The notes under the pieces: model-generated
What the model saw: only the letters and a program-made list of their open reading frames with translations
The model's database searches: none
What the model was told of the DNA's origin: nothing
Assembly (NCBI GenBank): GCA_963666565.1
Contig: OY762911.1
Coordinates: 1,728,001 to 1,792,000 of the forward strand
DNA from: Thermoanaerobaculia bacterium
GTDB taxonomy: Bacteria; Acidobacteriota; Thermoanaerobaculia; Multivoradales; Multivoraceae
Length of the DNA: 64,000 nt
Direction of reading: 5' to 3'
Shown here: positions 1,255 to 55,757 of the stretch, piece after piece
Position numbering within the stretch: position 1 is the first letter of the stretch
How the letters are laid out: each line of letters opens with the position of its first letter
Program-made: the position numbers and the translations under genes

Positions 1255-2549
1255 GGCGCCGGGATCTCCGCCAGTGCCTCGCCGACCGCGCCGGCAAAGC
1301 CGGCGAGCGCTCCCTCGTCGTGCGCCAGCGACAGGAAGCCGACCTCGAAGGCGGACGGGGCGAGCATGTAGCCGCGGTCGAGCAGCCCGCGGTGGAGCAG
1401 CGCGAAGATCTCGGCGGTGTTCGGGTGGAAGCAGTCGGCCCGGCGCGGCGGTTCGCCGCCGCCGTAGGCGAGCCAGAAGATGGAGCCGCAACGGACGAGC
1501 CGGTAGGGATGATCGCTCGCCTCGAACACGGGGCCGAGCTTGCGTTCGAGCAGCGCGCCCAGGGCGTCCATCCGCGCCCAGCCGTCGTTGGCCGCGAGCT
1601 CGCGCAGGGTGGCGAGCCCGCCGGCGACGGCGAGCGGGTTTCCGGACAGCGTGCCGGCCTGGTAGACCGGACCGAGCGGCGAGAGCCGGTCCATCAGCCG
1701 CGCCGGCCCGCCGTAGGCGCCGACCGGCAGCCCGCCGCCGATCACCTTTCCAAGGGTGACGAGGTCGGGATCGATGCCGAGCTGGCCGCCGACGGTGACC
1801 CCGGGGACCCGGAACCCGCTCAGCACCTCGTCGAAGATCAAGAGCGTGCCGTGCTCGGTGCAGAGCCGGCGCAGGAGGCGGAGGTACTCGGGCCGCTGAA
1901 CCAGCAGGCCGTTGTTCGCCGGCAGCGGCTCGACGATCGCGGCCGCGAGATTCGCGCCGTGGCGCCGGAAGGCCTCTTCGAGCGCTTCGCCGTCGTCGAG
2001 CGGCAGCACGATCGTGTCGCGGGCGGTCGCCGCCGGGATGCCGGCGCTGGAGGCGATCCCGAAGGTGGCAAGACCGCTCCCCGCCTCGACCAGCAGCGCG
2101 TCGACGTGGCCGTGGTAGCAGCCCTCGAACTTGAGCACGAGGTCGCGGCCCGTGCAGCCGCGGGCGAGCCGGACCGCGGACTGCGTCGCCTCGGTGCCGG
2201 AGTTGACGAACCGGATCTTCTCGACGATCGGCACGAGTTCCTTGACGATGCGCGCGAGCTCGACCTCGCCTTCGTGCGGCGCGGCGAAGGACGTGCCGCG
2301 GGCGGCCGCCTGTTGGACGGCCTCGACGACCGCCGGGTGGCCGTGTCCCAGCACGAGGGGGCCGAACGAGCCGATGAAGTCGACGTAGCTCTTGCCGTCG
2401 ACGGAGCGCATCGCGGCGCCCTCGGCCTCCGCGATGAAGGGCGGCGTGCCGCCGACCGCGCGGTAGGCGCGCACCGGGCTGTTCACGCCCCCGACCAGGT
2501 GGCGCCGCGCCTCGGCCCAGAGTTCGCTGCTGGTGCGTCCGGCGGTCAT
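1251..2549 (-). CDS. hemL: glutamate-1-semialdehyde 2,1-aminomutase
   Basis: [38 protein letters not shown] (PLP Lys), [19 protein letters not shown]. Confidence 0.97.
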
Positions 2550-2605
2550 TCGCGTCCTCCGGCGGTCGCTCCCGGCCGGCAGTCGCGGCGTTGGCCTGCA
2601 CTCAT
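2546..2605 (-). CDS. 19-aa bridging mini-ORF ([19 protein letters not shown])
   Basis: Its ATG overlaps the hemCD stop (ATGA 2605-2602) and its TGA overlaps the hemL ATG (2549-2546); GGAGG 7 nt upstream of its start. Confidence 0.5.
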
Positions 2606-4626
2606 TCGGACGCCTCCGACGCCGTTGCGCCGTCCGTCCGTTCGCGCCAGAGGCGTTCGATGCCGGCGGCGGTCGGTTCGTGTGCGCATTTCACGTTGCC
2701 CGCTCCGGCGCTCCGGAGCGCCGCGGCCGTCGTGGCCCCGATCGCCCAGCAGCTTCCCGGCCAGTCGAGGCCGGACGCCGGGAAGGCCGCGACCGCCGAC
2801 GGAGCGGTGAAGAGTACGCGGGCGCGGGCCGCTTGCCAACCCTCGGGCCAGCCCAGGTCGTCCTTCGGATGCACCGTGTAGGCAGCCCAGGCGGTGACCT
2901 CCCGGCCGGCCGCCTCGAGCGCCTCGACGAGCGGGGCGCCGCCGCGGGCGGAATGCGGCACGAACAGCGGGCAGCGCGGGTCGAGGACGCGGGCCGCGTA
3001 GCCGGCGAAGTCCTCGCCCCCCGAGGCCCGCGCCGCGAGGTTCGGCGGCACGCCGGCCGCGAGCAACGCGCGCGCCGTGCCTTCGCCGAGCGCGCACCAC
3101 GGCAGGCGGCCCCAGACGGGATCCCGCTCCGCTCGCTCGACGACCACGCGCGCCGCCGTAGGTGACGAAACGAGCAGCCACGGCCACCGGCGGCGCGGCC
3201 TCTCAAGTTCGATGCGGCCGGCCGGCCAGGGCGTGTCGAAGACCTCGACTTCCGTCGCCGGCAGGGCTGCGACCCGGATGCGGGGATCGAGCCGGCCGGT
3301 CAGCCGGCGCACGGCAATCGGCGACGAAGTGACGACGAGATCCGGCACGCCGATGCCCGTCTCGTCAGGAGCCTTCCGCTCCCTGGGTGCGCGGGTCTTC
3401 CGACCCGCACTGGGTGCGCGGGTCTTCTGACCCGCCGCCGCCGAAGGCGGCCTAAAGACCCCGCCGGCCGCAAGGCCGGCATCCACTCCGCCAAGATCCC
3501 GCTCCAACCGCTCCGCCAGCGCGTCAAGTTCGCCACCGCCGTCGCCGTCCGCCGCCGCAGCCGCAGCGTGAACCACGCCTGGCGCCTCCCCGGCCGCGGC
3601 GGACTCGCGCCAGTCGTCCGGCGCAATCAGCGCATGGACCTCGCGCGGCGCCGGCCTCTCCGACTCTCCATCGCCGACCTCCGCCCACGCGCCGAACGGC
3701 CGCAGGCAGCCGCCCCCGAGCCGGCCGAGCAGGCCCCGCTCCGCGAGAACCGCGACCCGGCTCGGGGCGTGGTCGAGCGCCGCCATCGCCAGATGCCCGT
3801 CGAGCCGGCCTCCGCGCAGGATCTGCACCGCCAGAGCCCCCTGACCGGGAGCGCACGGCCAACTCCTCAGGTCGAGCCGGAAGCCACGCACCGCGGCCGC
3901 CGACCCGTCGAGCGCTCCACTGCGAGCCAGCCGCAGAACGCCGGCCTCCGCCGCCAGCAGAGCGTCGATCGCCCCGCTCCGGAGCCACTCCAGCCGGCGA
4001 CCCACCGACCCGCGCACCGCGCAGCAGACGAGATCCCGCCGGATCGCGAGCGCCCCGGCCTGCCGCCGTGGCGACGACGTACCCAGGCGTGCCCCGGCCG
4101 GCAGGAGAGCGAACGCCTCGGTGGCCGGAGTCGCGCTCTCGCCGACGGCCGTCTCGTCGCCCTCGAGCAGTTCCTCAAGTTGCGACGTCGACCCCGCCGC
4201 TCCGGCTGCACCCATCGCGCCGGTCGCCTCGGCTGGCCCCGTCGGCCCCGCTGTCCCGGCCGCCTCGGCTGCCTCCGCCGCCCCGACTGCCCCGGCGGCC
4301 TCCAACTTCGGCGCGAACAGCAGAAGATCGAACGGCCGCTCCCGTTCCGGCACGGCGGCGATGACCAGCCCCGGTTCGTTCTCGACAGGCAGGTCCTTCA
4401 GCGAGTGAACGACGAGGTCGACCGAGCCATCGCGCAGAGCAGCGCTCAGTTCGCCGGTGAAGACCCCCTTGGCCTGGGCGAAACTGCCGCCGAGGCTGCG
4501 GTCGCCCTGAGAGGACATGGCGCGGACTACGGTCGCCAAGCCCACTTCGCGGAGCCGGCGGGCGACGAGATCGGCCTGAATCCGCGCCAGCGGCGTCGCC
4601 CGAGTGCCGATGACGATGGGGTCCAC
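2602..4626 (-). CDS. hemC-hemD: fused hydroxymethylbilane synthase / uroporphyrinogen-III synthase
   Basis: HemC motifs IGTR, VHSLKDLP, GTSSPRR, PGQGALA, GGGC; C-terminal HemD motifs VSSPTA, ALGEGTARAL, FTAPSAV, AIGATTAAAL; GTG start 6 nt after a TATTCT -10-like box. Confidence 0.88.
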   Translation of the reverse strand: MDPIVIGTRATPLARIQADLVARRLREVGLATVVRAMSSQGDRSLGGSFAQAKGVFTGELSAALRDGSVDLVVHSLKDLPVENEPGLVIAAVPERERPFDLLLFAPKLEAAGAVGAAEAAEAAGTAGPTGPAEATGAMGAAGAAGSTSQLEELLEGDETAVGESATPATEAFALLPAGARLGTSSPRRQAGALAIRRDLVCCAVRGSVGRRLEWLRSGAIDALLAAEAGVLRLARSGALDGSAAAVRGFRLDLRSWPCAPGQGALAVQILRGGRLDGHLAMAALDHAPSRVAVLAERGLLGRLGGGCLRPFGAWAEVGDGESERPAPREVHALIAPDDWRESAAAGEAPGVVHAAAAAADGDGGGELDALAERLERDLGGVDAGLAAGGVFRPPSAAAGQKTRAPSAGRKTRAPRERKAPDETGIGVPDLVVTSSPIAVRRLTGRLDPRIRVAALPATEVEVFDTPWPAGRIELERPRRRWPWLLVSSPTAARVVVERAERDPVWGRLPWCALGEGTARALLAAGVPPNLAARASGGEDFAGYAARVLDPRCPLFVPHSARGGAPLVEALEAAGREVTAWAAYTVHPKDDLGWPEGWQAARARVLFTAPSAVAAFPASGLDWPGSCWAIGATTAAALRSAGAGNVKCAHEPTAAGIERLWRERTDGATASEASE
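3383..3452. repeat. two tandem REP-like hairpin units (27-bp period) plus a GCCGCC-GAA-GGCGGC tail, inside hemCD
   Basis: CTGGGTGC-GCGGGTC-TTCC/TTCT-GACCCGC twice; same family as the copies at 6641, 9804, 24045, 42965 and 58435. Confidence 0.9.
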
Positions 4627-54983: not shown

Positions 54984-55621
54984 CGGACGAGGCCCCCGGC
55001 CGCTCAACTGGAGCGCTTCGCCGGTCATCTCGGCCGCCGAGCGAAGCCGCCGGTGATCCGGCTGGGACCGCGACGCCAAGAGCGGTTGGCGCGGAAGACA
55101 GGGTGCGGGCGATGCGGCGTCCCGATCCCAGACTGCTTCGCTACTACGTTCTCTTCTCGCTGATCACCGGACCCGCGTTCCCCGTCGTCTTCACCGTCCT
55201 GTTCCTGCGCTACCGCACCCTGCGCTACCGCTTCGACGACGAAGGGGTGACGATGAGCTGGGGCGCCCTGTTCAAGCGCGAGATCAGCCTGACCTACAGC
55301 CGCATCCAGGACATCCACCTGCGGAGCAACGCGGTCGAGCGCTGGCTGGGCCTGTCGCGCCTGCTGGTACAGACGGCGAGCGGTTCGGCGAAGGCCGAGA
55401 TGAAGATCGAGGGCCTGCTGGAACTGTCCGCCGTGCGCAACTTCATGTACAGCCGGATGCGCGGCGCGGGGACCGGCGGGCCGGCGCCCGGCCGGGCGGT
55501 CGAGCGGGCAGCCGTGCCGGCGCCGGGCGGTGGCTCGGCCGCTTTGGCCTCCGTCCTGCGCGAGATCGCGGGCGAGGTCGCGGCGATTCGCGCAGCCGTC
55601 GAACGGCGGGACGAGGCATGA
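54980..55621 (+). CDS. bacterial PH domain (YdbS-like) membrane protein
   Basis: LRYRFDDEGV..RIQDI..ERWLGL..VQTASG; GTG overlaps the rocD stop. Confidence 0.85.
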   Translation: MTDEAPGRSTGALRRSSRPPSEAAGDPAGTATPRAVGAEDRVRAMRRPDPRLLRYYVLFSLITGPAFPVVFTVLFLRYRTLRYRFDDEGVTMSWGALFKREISLTYSRIQDIHLRSNAVERWLGLSRLLVQTASGSAKAEMKIEGLLELSAVRNFMYSRMRGAGTGGPAPGRAVERAAVPAPGGGSAALASVLREIAGEVAAIRAAVERRDEA

Positions 55622-55757
55622 CGGACAAACAGCGCGGCGGGCAGGACAAGCCATGACGGGCGTGCGGCGCGGCGGGCGGGACAAGCCATGACGGGCGCGC
55701 GGCACGGCGGGCGGGACGAGCCATGACGGACGCGCGGCACGGCGGGCGGCACGAAGG
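55618..55757 (+). repeat. about 4 x 35-bp tandem repeat encoding three chained 12-aa mini-ORFs and the start of the next gene
   Basis: ATG at 55618, 55653, 55688 and 55723; each 39-nt ORF ends CCATGA in the next ATG. Confidence 0.9.

Follow-up and report, generated by a model that had tools for sequence, protein, structure and literature searches.

Termination-reinitiation at ATGA is a textbook mechanism. The closest described systems to those considered here are the mycobacterial MIRUs (Supply et al. 1997, as cited in PMC12548453 and PMC4473831). According to the available parts of the two citing papers, these are short intergenic units within operons, often in tandem, whose small ORFs are co-oriented with the flanking genes and overlap the stop codon of one and the start codon of the other. 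The units are thought there to insert at start codons, the ORF being coupled at −4 spacing with a minimal effect on expression. In M. tuberculosis, NUGA and URRUG overlaps have been described both between uORFs and genes and between uORFs (D'Halluin et al., bioRxiv 10.1101/2022.06.01.494293). In the portion of that preprint on which we draw, overlaps of 4 nt (also of 1 nt) are dominant, 58% of the overlapped starts are without a canonical Shine-Dalgarno (SD) motif, and the proposed reading is a hand-over of the ribosome. The excerpted review by Brown and Wade 2025 (PMC12548453) covers short ORFs that 'deliver' the ribosome to a downstream gene, as well as synthetic bicistronic designs. Finally, the spacing within orthologous operons shifts fast among close relatives, with canonical overlaps appearing and disappearing (Price, Arkin and Alm 2006, PMC1480536); the stress, in the part of that study used here, is on overlaps formed by deletion, with spacing changes unbiased for multiples of three.

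Here, we consider a window of 64 kb (the whole stretch of DNA that was analysed) from an Acidobacteriota (Thermoanaerobaculia) genome, in which four junctions between co-directional genes, called J1 to J4, are bridged exactly by very small ORFs. Compared with what the available descriptions give for MIRUs, the likeness is close, since at all four junctions a co-oriented small ORF overlaps the flanking stop and start, and the closest look-alike is J4, a tandem array of 35-nt units with one coupled ORF per unit. However, MIRUs are described there as a dispersed, apparently mobile mycobacterial family, whereas here every insert has been copied locally from the junction in which it lies; those of J1 and J3 are single-copy in the genome, the inserts are mutually unrelated, and the host is not a mycobacterium. 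MIRU tandems vary in copy number; the J4 array was found to be the same in three samples of one study, and the J2 unit ranges from none to two copies among the relatives. With the M. tuberculosis uORFs, as far as the preprint portion describes them, the present ORFs share that they are short, unannotated and overlap annotated ORFs or each other in chains. Those uORFs lie in 5' leaders, while the ones here are pinned at both ends between full-length genes and can be traced to junction duplication; also, the overlapped starts there often have no canonical SD, while the bridged starts here have ordinary ones. As with the ribosome-delivering ORFs of the review excerpt, the role would be purely positional, with the ORF ending on the start of the gene served. 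Those ORFs have an SD of their own, however, while the relays here would be evolutionary leftovers fed by termination of the upstream gene. The stop/start overlap of 4 nt (NUGA) or 1 nt (URRUG) by which TeRe coupling is recognised is found at the relay junctions. Relative to the spacing changes reported in the consulted part of Price, Arkin and Alm 2006 (PMC1480536), the overlap expansions here differ in carrying a phase bias.

Anatomy of the four junctions

It is important to point out that gene starts were taken from a crude caller of our own and not from curated annotation, including the start of the hemC-hemD gene. With these calls, the window contains 28 co-directional junctions, 6 with a 4-nt overlap and 22 with a gap. 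An upstream RTGA stop is found at 7 of the latter, 4 of which are relays, compared to about 1 expected per 64 kb; the window is an outlier in this number because of how it was picked. According to an earlier note, made on the window only, the ORFs that bridge these four junctions have 19, 6, 31 and 3 × 12 codons and carry RTGA at either end, and this was found to be exact in each case.

At J1 (minus strand), the relay ORF at 2546..2605 has 19 codons and ATGA at each end. It lies between a porphobilinogen deaminase/uroporphyrinogen-III synthase fusion (hemC-hemD, 2602..4626; Pfam Porphobil_deam PF01379 and HEM4 PF02602) and a hemL-like class-III aminotransferase gene (1251..2549; Pfam Aminotran_3), the N-terminus of which is collinear with relatives. 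The nearest named records are Thermoanaerobaculia and 'Candidatus Multivorans' MAGs, with 88-91% identity in hemL. At J2 (minus strand), the six codons MTTGEE at 9172..9192, again with ATGA at both ends, connect the gene of a ferritin-like protein (9189..9794; PF00210) to that of an MFS transporter (7568..9175; PF07690). The relay ORF here belongs to a duplicated unit of 17 nt that bears the GGAG Shine-Dalgarno sequence of the MFS gene.

J3 (minus strand) has a relay ORF of 31 codons at 42305..42400, running from GTGA to GTGA between two genes assigned by Pfam to the Zn-dependent alcohol dehydrogenase family (upstream 42397..43485, downstream 41259..42308). The GTG start of the downstream gene is the sole start candidate within the open frame, and both ends of the relay ORF resemble the ancestral junction (ccc-RTGA-TYCC). 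At J4 (plus strand), three relay ORFs of 12 codons each, linked to one another through ATGA, separate two bacterial PH-domain genes (bPH_2 by Pfam, 55103..55621 and 55723..56625). The first (MTDKQRGGQDKP, 55618..55656) overlaps the upstream stop with its start, the second is MTGVRRGGRDKP (55653..55691), and the third (MTGARHGGRDEP, 55688..55726) overlaps the downstream start with its stop. They lie within a tandem repeat found by TRF at 55605..55749, with a 35-nt unit, 4.1 copies and 88% matches. The last, incomplete copy forms the 5' end of the downstream gene. The repeat has as its template the N-terminus encoded there (MTDARHGGRH...). The insert lengths at J1 to J4 are 56, 17, 92 and 3 × 35 nt, every one being 2 mod 3.

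Ancestral state of the junctions

The four junctions were compared with their counterparts in genomes of the same genus, which are not independent samples. At J1, the genes overlap directly through ATGA, with the reading M-S-A-G, in 14 of the 23 relatives. The mini-ORF of the host genome opens with the same MSAG codons, a relic of the ancestral hemL start. Another four relatives have CTGAATGA, two have different bridges (one of 11 codons, and one of 38 codons starting at a 1-nt overlap), two have gaps without a bridge, and one could not be classed.

At J2, the 6-codon bridge is kept in 25 of 29 relatives, with a single copy of the unit, and two relatives have the direct overlap and no copy. 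In one genome the 17-nt unit has been duplicated again, giving two copies with the chain intact via TTG, and in another there is a 21-nt version that is in frame with the MFS gene.

J3 is more variable. Direct overlap is seen in 4 of 29 relatives, a 4-nt gap in 8, and bridges of 8, 11 or 17 codons in 9, while a gap of 0 mod 3 is seen in none of the 29. Among the 18 alleles with gaps of at least 19 nt, the base before TGA, which is a synonymous site in a proline codon, is G nine times, T six times and C three times, and all 8 alleles with the 4-nt gap have C there; one 28-nt allele (L077) has a stop within the bridge. The relay start is therefore not strictly conserved at J3 among the relatives. 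At J4, 27 of the 28 relatives scored have a start that is in frame and lies 4 nt into the stop of the upstream gene. The array was not seen among the junctions listed for these 28, and it therefore looks recent.

In line with the earlier note's idea of insertions or duplications at coupled junctions, these comparisons support that the bridges stand at junctions that were coupled ancestrally by a direct RTGA overlap and arose there by duplication or insertion.

Duplication signature

A duplication signature is also present genome-wide. When the flanks of the paired RTGA motifs are compared, 8.07 of 20 positions match in real bridges, compared to 5.77 in controls (p=9e-6). A scan for duplicated junction motifs, which does not depend on start calls, gave 35 pairs that reduce to 30 when read per locus. 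The length of the duplicated unit is 2 mod 3 at 18 of these loci, 0 at 9 and 1 at 3 (18 vs 3, p=0.0015). In G032, a genome of another family, junction duplicates can be recognised at 7 places, all of them in frame and without a relay, and the duplication route may therefore be lineage-specific.

Genome-wide phase statistics

We now turn our attention to the fate of the reading frame beginning one base ahead of the upstream stop, scored over the whole genome, with our own gene calls, for gaps of 1-200 nt. As controls we have used 'virtual' bridges behind CTGA or TAG/TAA stops. Behind RTGA stops (n=256), the frame bridges the gap exactly in 70 cases, is in frame with the downstream gene in 89, runs over its start in 34 and stops in the gap in 63. 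The corresponding numbers are 86, 148, 196 and 138 for CTGA (n=568), and 71, 130, 205 and 150 for TAG/TAA (n=556). Behind TTGA, a weak start, the distribution is intermediate (22, 31, 19 and 34; n=106).

Bridged gaps are thus more common behind RTGA (70/256 vs 157/1124 in controls; OR 2.3, p=9e-7), run-over ORFs are rarer (34/256 vs 401/1124), and the ratio of bridge to run-over is 70:34 compared to 157:401 (OR 5.3, p=7e-14). The difference is retained among high-scoring gene pairs (59:22 vs 131:278) and with longest-ORF starts (78:52 vs 169:499). In 2.4 Mb of G032 (73% GC) the ratio is 33:33 compared to 79:306 (OR 3.9, p=2e-6). The phase bias that the earlier note had predicted, with relay-producing lengths enriched and run-over lengths depleted, is hence present in both genomes.

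The caution expressed in the same note, that stops are rare here and bridges can arise by chance, proved well placed. In the controls, 14% of the gaps have a virtual bridge, and ca 36 of the 70 real bridges are therefore expected by chance. The bridge frame is open in 70/75 cases of the real class and in 100/112 of the control class; an open frame is uninformative as such, and the signal resides in the phase of the gap rather than in the absence of stops.

Proposed explanation

On the basis of these results, we consider it probable that the bridges are scars of local duplication or insertion at what were once direct 4-nt RTGA overlaps, and that they persist mainly where the phase of the relay is kept. 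The duplication would copy the RTGA motif, leaving the old start codon on the upstream stop and setting the copied start at a distance of 17 to 105 nt downstream. When the added length is 2 mod 3, the frame from the relic start would end on the TGA that the new start contains. A ribosome ending the upstream gene could then reinitiate on the relic start, make a meaningless peptide, terminate at the real start and reinitiate there, that is, perform termination-reinitiation two or more times over. With 0 mod 3 the N-terminus would merely be lengthened, while a length of 1 mod 3 would lead ribosomes that began at the relic start across the real start out of frame, and the junction would be purged or the relic start lost. 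Against this explanation stands a general shortage of 0 mod 3 gaps behind TGA stops, which we can account for only in part.

The earlier note had stated that insertions survive mainly with an unbroken relay. The evolutionary half of this is supported, as the sequences show the anatomy, the ancestral state, the signature of duplication and the bias in phase; as to the ribosomal half, we infer that ribosomes reinitiate on the relic start and that selection acts on this reinitiation. The net effect is probably that the widened junction keeps its coupling and stays covered by ribosomes, possibly with some attenuation per hop. The relay bridges are no new regulatory device and no new mechanism. The 'candidate system' of the earlier note is not a dedicated system: about half of the bridges are expected by chance. 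The topology is already known from MIRUs and NUGA-coupled uORFs. What sets the present cases apart is the origin by junction duplication and the phase bias.

Junctions that would mislead ribosomes are missing and those that would hand them on are in excess, which is genome-wide evidence, from sequence data, that ribosomes 'see' a start codon lying on a stop codon, also where it is not followed by an annotated gene. ATGA termination-reinitiation would in this way become a constraint on operon evolution, and a class of unannotated micro-ORFs would be explained without a function for the peptides. For annotators, it is a warning that bridged gaps differ from ordinary intergenic regions. The MIRU concept would be extended beyond a repeat family of mycobacteria and would take in junction copies that are self-made, here in a lineage of uncultivated Acidobacteriota. 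One can speculate further, although we think it rather unlikely, that in high-GC bacteria generally stop-overlapping starts are read efficiently enough to police the growth of junctions, that junction duplication is a common route to new spacing through a frame filter in which 2 mod 3 lengths survive as relays, and that tandem arrays such as the 3 × 35-nt one could be copy-number-tunable attenuators, a translational rheostat of junk peptides.

Alternative explanations

The alternative that survives best is that the bridges are harmless relics: duplication makes them, selection acts only against relic starts that are out of frame, and downstream expression rests on the gene's own SD. We consider this unlikely on the whole, but it has several observations on its side. 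The SD pairing energy at bridged downstream starts is −5.9 kcal/mol, compared to −5.1 kcal/mol at other gaps and −5.6 kcal/mol at virtual bridges (p=0.68), which means that the downstream genes need not depend on the relay and that de novo initiation may suffice. The decay of the J3 relay start to CTGA or TTGA in relatives, including the eight with CTGA and a 4-nt gap, and the equal openness of real and control frames point in the same direction. However, purging of run-over frames alone should lift the stops-in-gap class equally, and bridges rise more (70:63 vs 157:288, p=4e-4), although a duplication origin could explain this excess too.

Pure chance was also considered, in which 70% GC, rare stops, TGA as the common stop and A often following the start give exact bridges without history or selection. 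It accounts for the virtual bridges and for about half of the real ones, but not for the two-fold excess of bridges and the 2.7-fold deficit of run-over compared to controls. The intermediate TTGA class, the duplication signature and the replication in G032 also speak against it, and all four cases in the window trace back to an ancestral overlap. As a full explanation, it is therefore very unlikely.

Still less credible is the insertion at start codons of MIRU-like mobile or dispersed repeats with a coupled ORF of their own. The double-overlap topology is identical to that in the MIRU descriptions, dispersed repeats abound in the genome, and REP-like elements lie in some few of the other bridges. 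On the other hand, the inserts of J1 and J3 match nothing else in the genome except weakly over 30-35 nt (54 queries, with the 13-nt gap of J2 and the J4 chain outside the query set). The four inserts, compared by eye, share no sequence, and each is built from copies of its own junction.

An artefact of annotation or assembly, that is, wrong downstream starts or single-base errors splitting a gene that overlaps the upstream stop, is about as improbable. The starts do come from our own caller, and the 89 of 256 'gaps' behind RTGA that are in frame with an overlapping RTG are probably truncated calls. However, the four downstream proteins align collinearly with those of relatives from the called N-terminus (offset 0), what separates the junctions from their counterparts is an insert of 17 to 105 nt and not a 1-nt shift, the J4 array is identical, with 0 differences, in independent contigs of the three samples (an assembly check), and the statistics hold under two start definitions.

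Finally, functional micropeptides are the least probable option: at J2, 25 of 29 relatives retain the peptide pattern M-T-x-G-x-E, but the positions conserved in it are those where the ATGA overlaps and the GGAG SD lie, no conservation beyond such overlapping signals was found at J1-J4 in the relatives, and the composition of the other peptides is rich in Arg, Gly, Pro and Ala, as expected of off-frame GC-rich DNA. The peptides share no sequence, as the earlier note had it, and the other ones are absent or different in relatives, which makes the topology, and not the product, the plausible target.

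The four bridged junctions

A mechanical listing of ORFs that both begin and end on RTGA recovers exactly the four bridged gaps described in the earlier note. J1, between a hemC/hemD fusion and a gene for a hemL-like aminotransferase (Pfam assignments here and below), is spanned by a 19-codon ORF at 2546..2605 (−); J2, between ferritin and MFS genes, by 6 codons at 9172..9192 (−); J3, between two Zn-dependent alcohol dehydrogenases, by 31 codons at 42305..42400 (−); and J4, between two bPH_2 proteins, by a chain of three 12-codon ORFs at 55618..55726 (+). The bridges are a real feature of this DNA. 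The lengths added are 56, 17, 92 and 3 × 35 nt, every one 2 mod 3. Nothing indicates that the encoded peptides are themselves what selection acts on.

The window (G000:C1:1728001-1792000) belongs to a single-contig genome of 4,786,144 bp with 67–74% GC, and the closest named records for hemL are metagenome-assembled Thermoanaerobaculia or 'Candidatus Multivorans' (Acidobacteriota), at 88–91% identity; the host is therefore no actinobacterium, although its base composition could point that way. Genes were called by a codon score trained on 1054 long high-GC3 ORFs, and the resulting 3551 genes take up 88% of the sequence. It is important to point out that the stops are robust while the starts are the caller's estimates, which is the chief technical caveat. 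By these calls the window has 28 co-directional junctions, 6 with a 4-nt overlap and 22 with a gap; RTGA is present at the upstream stop in 7 of the 22, and 4 of these 7 are relays. When 1-nt links are allowed too, the genome contains 85 single relays, 5 double ones and a sole triple one, which is J4.

The junctions in related genomes

Each junction was compared with its counterparts in genomes of the same genus, and direct overlaps were found among the relatives at all four. At J1, 14 of 23 relatives have a direct ATGA overlap with the hemL start M-S-A-G, and 4 carry CTGAATGA. Two have other bridges, one of 11 codons from GTGA and one of 38 codons from a 1-nt TGATG overlap; two are unbridged, with gaps of 30 and 39 nt, and one is unresolved. 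In our genome the mini-ORF opens on the ancestral MSAG codons, and hemL now starts 56 nt further downstream; a 56-nt expansion has therefore left the old start behind.

At J2, the 13-nt gap and 6-codon bridge are unchanged in 25 of 29 relatives, and two have a direct overlap. One relative has the 17-nt unit, which includes the GGAG of the MFS gene, twice, with the chain intact via TTG, and another has a 21-nt version in frame with MFS.

At J3, direct ATGA overlaps are present in 4 of 29 relatives, and 8 have cccCTGAAGGCATGA, a 4-nt gap without a start. Another 9 are bridged by 8, 11 or 17 codons, with TTG as first codon in 4 of them and a TTG start at the end in one, and the remaining 8 are unbridged (gaps of 26, 28 (twice), 38, 83, 89, 115 and 116 nt). 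The relay start is thus not strictly conserved. No gap of 0 mod 3 occurs among the 29. The motif flanking the stop is repeated around the start, which indicates a duplication of the junction.

For J4, 28 of 29 loci could be scored, one being without a hit pair. An in-frame start reaching 4 nt into the upstream stop was found in 27 (23 ATGA/GTGA, 4 TTGA) and CTGA in one. Tandem Repeats Finder (TRF) gives a 35-nt repeat of 4.1 copies at 55605-55749, the last and incomplete copy being formed by the 5' end of the gene downstream. The array looks like a recent tandem multiplication of the 35 nt that open this gene, as none of the junctions listed for the relatives contains repeated units. With a period of 35 nt, the ATG of each copy is closed automatically by the ATGA of the next. 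No copy-number variation was seen in contigs of three sequencing samples (X1, X2 and X4), all from a single study and perhaps with the assembly's own source among them; a sample from another study (X5) has no contig spanning the array and is hence uninformative on copy number.

Bridges compared with chance

The earlier note had cautioned that some bridges can arise by chance and proposed a genome-wide count against a null. We considered all co-directional junctions with a gap of 1–200 nt and traced in each the reading frame whose first base directly precedes the upstream stop. With A or G at this base the frame has a real ATG or GTG, while C before the stop, or a TAG/TAA stop, gives startless controls, in which the same geometry yields only virtual bridges. 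Among 256 RTGA junctions, the frame forms a bridge at 70, continues in frame with the next gene at 89, crosses its start out of frame (a run-over) at 34 and stops in the gap at 63. The corresponding numbers are 86, 148, 196 and 138 for CTGA (n=568) and 71, 130, 205 and 150 for TAG/TAA (n=556). These two controls are mutually consistent, and TTGA, a weak start, lies in between (n=106; 22, 31, 19 and 34).

Bridges are thus in excess at real starts, 70/256 versus 157/1124 in the controls (OR 2.3, p=9e-7); about 36 of the 70 are expected by chance. The shift is larger relative to run-overs, 70:34 versus 157:401 (OR 5.3, p=7e-14), and is also seen relative to stops in the gap, 70:63 versus 157:288 (p=4e-4). 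Both the bridge excess and the bridge to run-over shift persist in high-scoring gene pairs and with longest-ORF starts. In G032, a genome from another family of the same order (73% GC; 2.4 Mb), the same pipeline gives bridge to run-over ratios of 33:33 versus 79:306 (OR 3.9, p=2e-6) and bridge fractions of 33/169 versus 79/695 (p=0.007). Another option considered was that an open bridge frame is itself a sign of maintenance. This was rejected, the frame being open in 70/75 real and 100/112 control cases.

Two further biases were observed throughout G000. At convergent gene ends the base before TGA is C in 395 cases, G in 77, A in 23 and T in 44, and before TAG it is G in 282 and C in 104, which is consistent with avoidance of GTGA, where a start would sit on the stop, and with avoidance of CTAG. 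Behind TGA stops, gaps of 0 mod 3, which place the next gene in the same frame, are depleted in all classes (203 versus 391 and 336), and far more weakly behind TAG/TAA (164, 207, 185). This depletion could reflect counter-selection of proteins fused by read-through of a leaky UGA, and genes split by frameshifts are another possible source.

Probable origin by duplication

The flanks of the paired RTGA motifs agree at 8.07 of 20 positions in real bridges versus 5.77 of 20 in controls (p=9e-6), and a match of at least 11 is found in 19/61 real bridges versus 2/67 virtual CTGA bridges. We also scanned for duplicates irrespective of start calls, pairing the RTGA at a gene stop with another one no more than 250 nt away and requiring agreement at 12 or more of the 20 flank positions. 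The scan gave 35 pairs in G000, which we read from the table as 30 loci, with the shortest unit taken at each. As to length modulo 3, a check that had also been suggested earlier, the units favour 2 mod 3 (18 loci), with 9 at 0 and 3 at 1 (chi-square p=0.003; 18 versus 3, p=0.0015). In G032 the scan gave 7 loci; every one is in frame, and there is no relay among them. This part of the result was thus not replicated there, and frequent junction duplication may be a trait of the G000 lineage, in which tandem and dispersed repeats are plentiful. An origin of the inserts from dispersed repeats was ruled out by BLAST for J1 and J3, the queries covering these two junctions.

Possible mechanism

The overlaps seen in relatives, the signs of duplication and the bias in phase support the evolutionary half of the earlier suggestion, that insertions at coupled junctions survive mainly when the relay is kept; its functional half, a setting or attenuation of downstream translation by the micro-ORFs, is hypothetical. 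Ribosomes would reinitiate on the relic start, the ancestral start codon still sitting on the upstream stop. After an insert of 2 mod 3 they would be handed on to the real start, while after one of 1 mod 3 they would cross it out of frame, and such a junction would be purged.

The bridged starts had been expected to lack a Shine-Dalgarno sequence (SD), on the model of many overlapped starts in M. tuberculosis; instead they have ordinary SDs. It is possible that the bridges are purely harmless relics, and both the ordinary SDs kept at these starts and the lack of strict conservation of the J3 relay start speak for this. For the same two reasons, the relay is at most one of two initiation routes.

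Relation to known systems

It is established that 4-nt and 1-nt overlaps support coupled translation and that short ORFs are able to deliver ribosomes (PMC12548453; PMC4473831; D'Halluin et al., bioRxiv 10.1101/2022.06.01.494293). According to D'Halluin et al., M. tuberculosis has chains of NUGA-overlapping uORFs and many overlapped starts without SD. MIRU ORFs overlap both neighbouring genes (PMC12548453; PMC4473831), a topology shared by the bridges here. However, a dispersed family, the defining feature of MIRUs, is absent for the J1 and J3 inserts by BLAST, and the host lies outside the mycobacteria; the arrangement is therefore MIRU-like in working but not a MIRU. Price et al. (PMC1480536) describe operon spacing as changing fast without phase bias, whereas a phase bias is present here. 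Apart from the mention of MIRUs, natural ORFs pinned at both stop and start are described in none of the papers listed by a search on such intercistronic short ORFs, which does not prove their absence. What is new here is the control-based genome-wide evidence with its replication, and the direction in which four junctions of an Acidobacteriota lineage have changed.

Other repeats and genes

The BLAST searches with the inserts also brought up an abundant, unrelated REP-like hairpin (core GCGGGTC-TTCC-GACCCGC within CTGGGTGCGCGGGTCTTCCGACCCGC), with about 1086 BLAST hits genome-wide, of which 945 are intergenic. Within the window (3383-3435, 9802-9953) it forms a 27-nt × 2 repeat and a 37-nt × 4.1 array (98% matches), the latter directly upstream of the ferritin gene. 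A second 35-nt tandem repeat (12900-12997; 2.8 copies, 92% matches), unlike the J4 array in sequence, lies between the called genes 12096..12863(+) and 13022..13399(−). Outside the window, intergenic tandem repeats occur at other operon junctions (G000 positions 1423376, 4270281, 2535522 and 3775246); among the repeats there are a 68-nt × 2 array that constitutes a 23+23-codon double relay and several in-frame arrays with periods of 45–105 nt.

The hemC-hemD fusion (2602-4626, −) joins porphobilinogen deaminase and uroporphyrinogen-III synthase domains in one 674-codon ORF; close to the 5' part of this ORF, 4220-4302 is a low-complexity region of 18/36-nt repeats. Finally, a VapB antitoxin gene (PF09957; 37225-37428, +) is linked via an ATGA overlap to one for a PIN-domain VapC-like toxin (PF01850; 37425-37811, +), and this pair is a type II toxin-antitoxin system.
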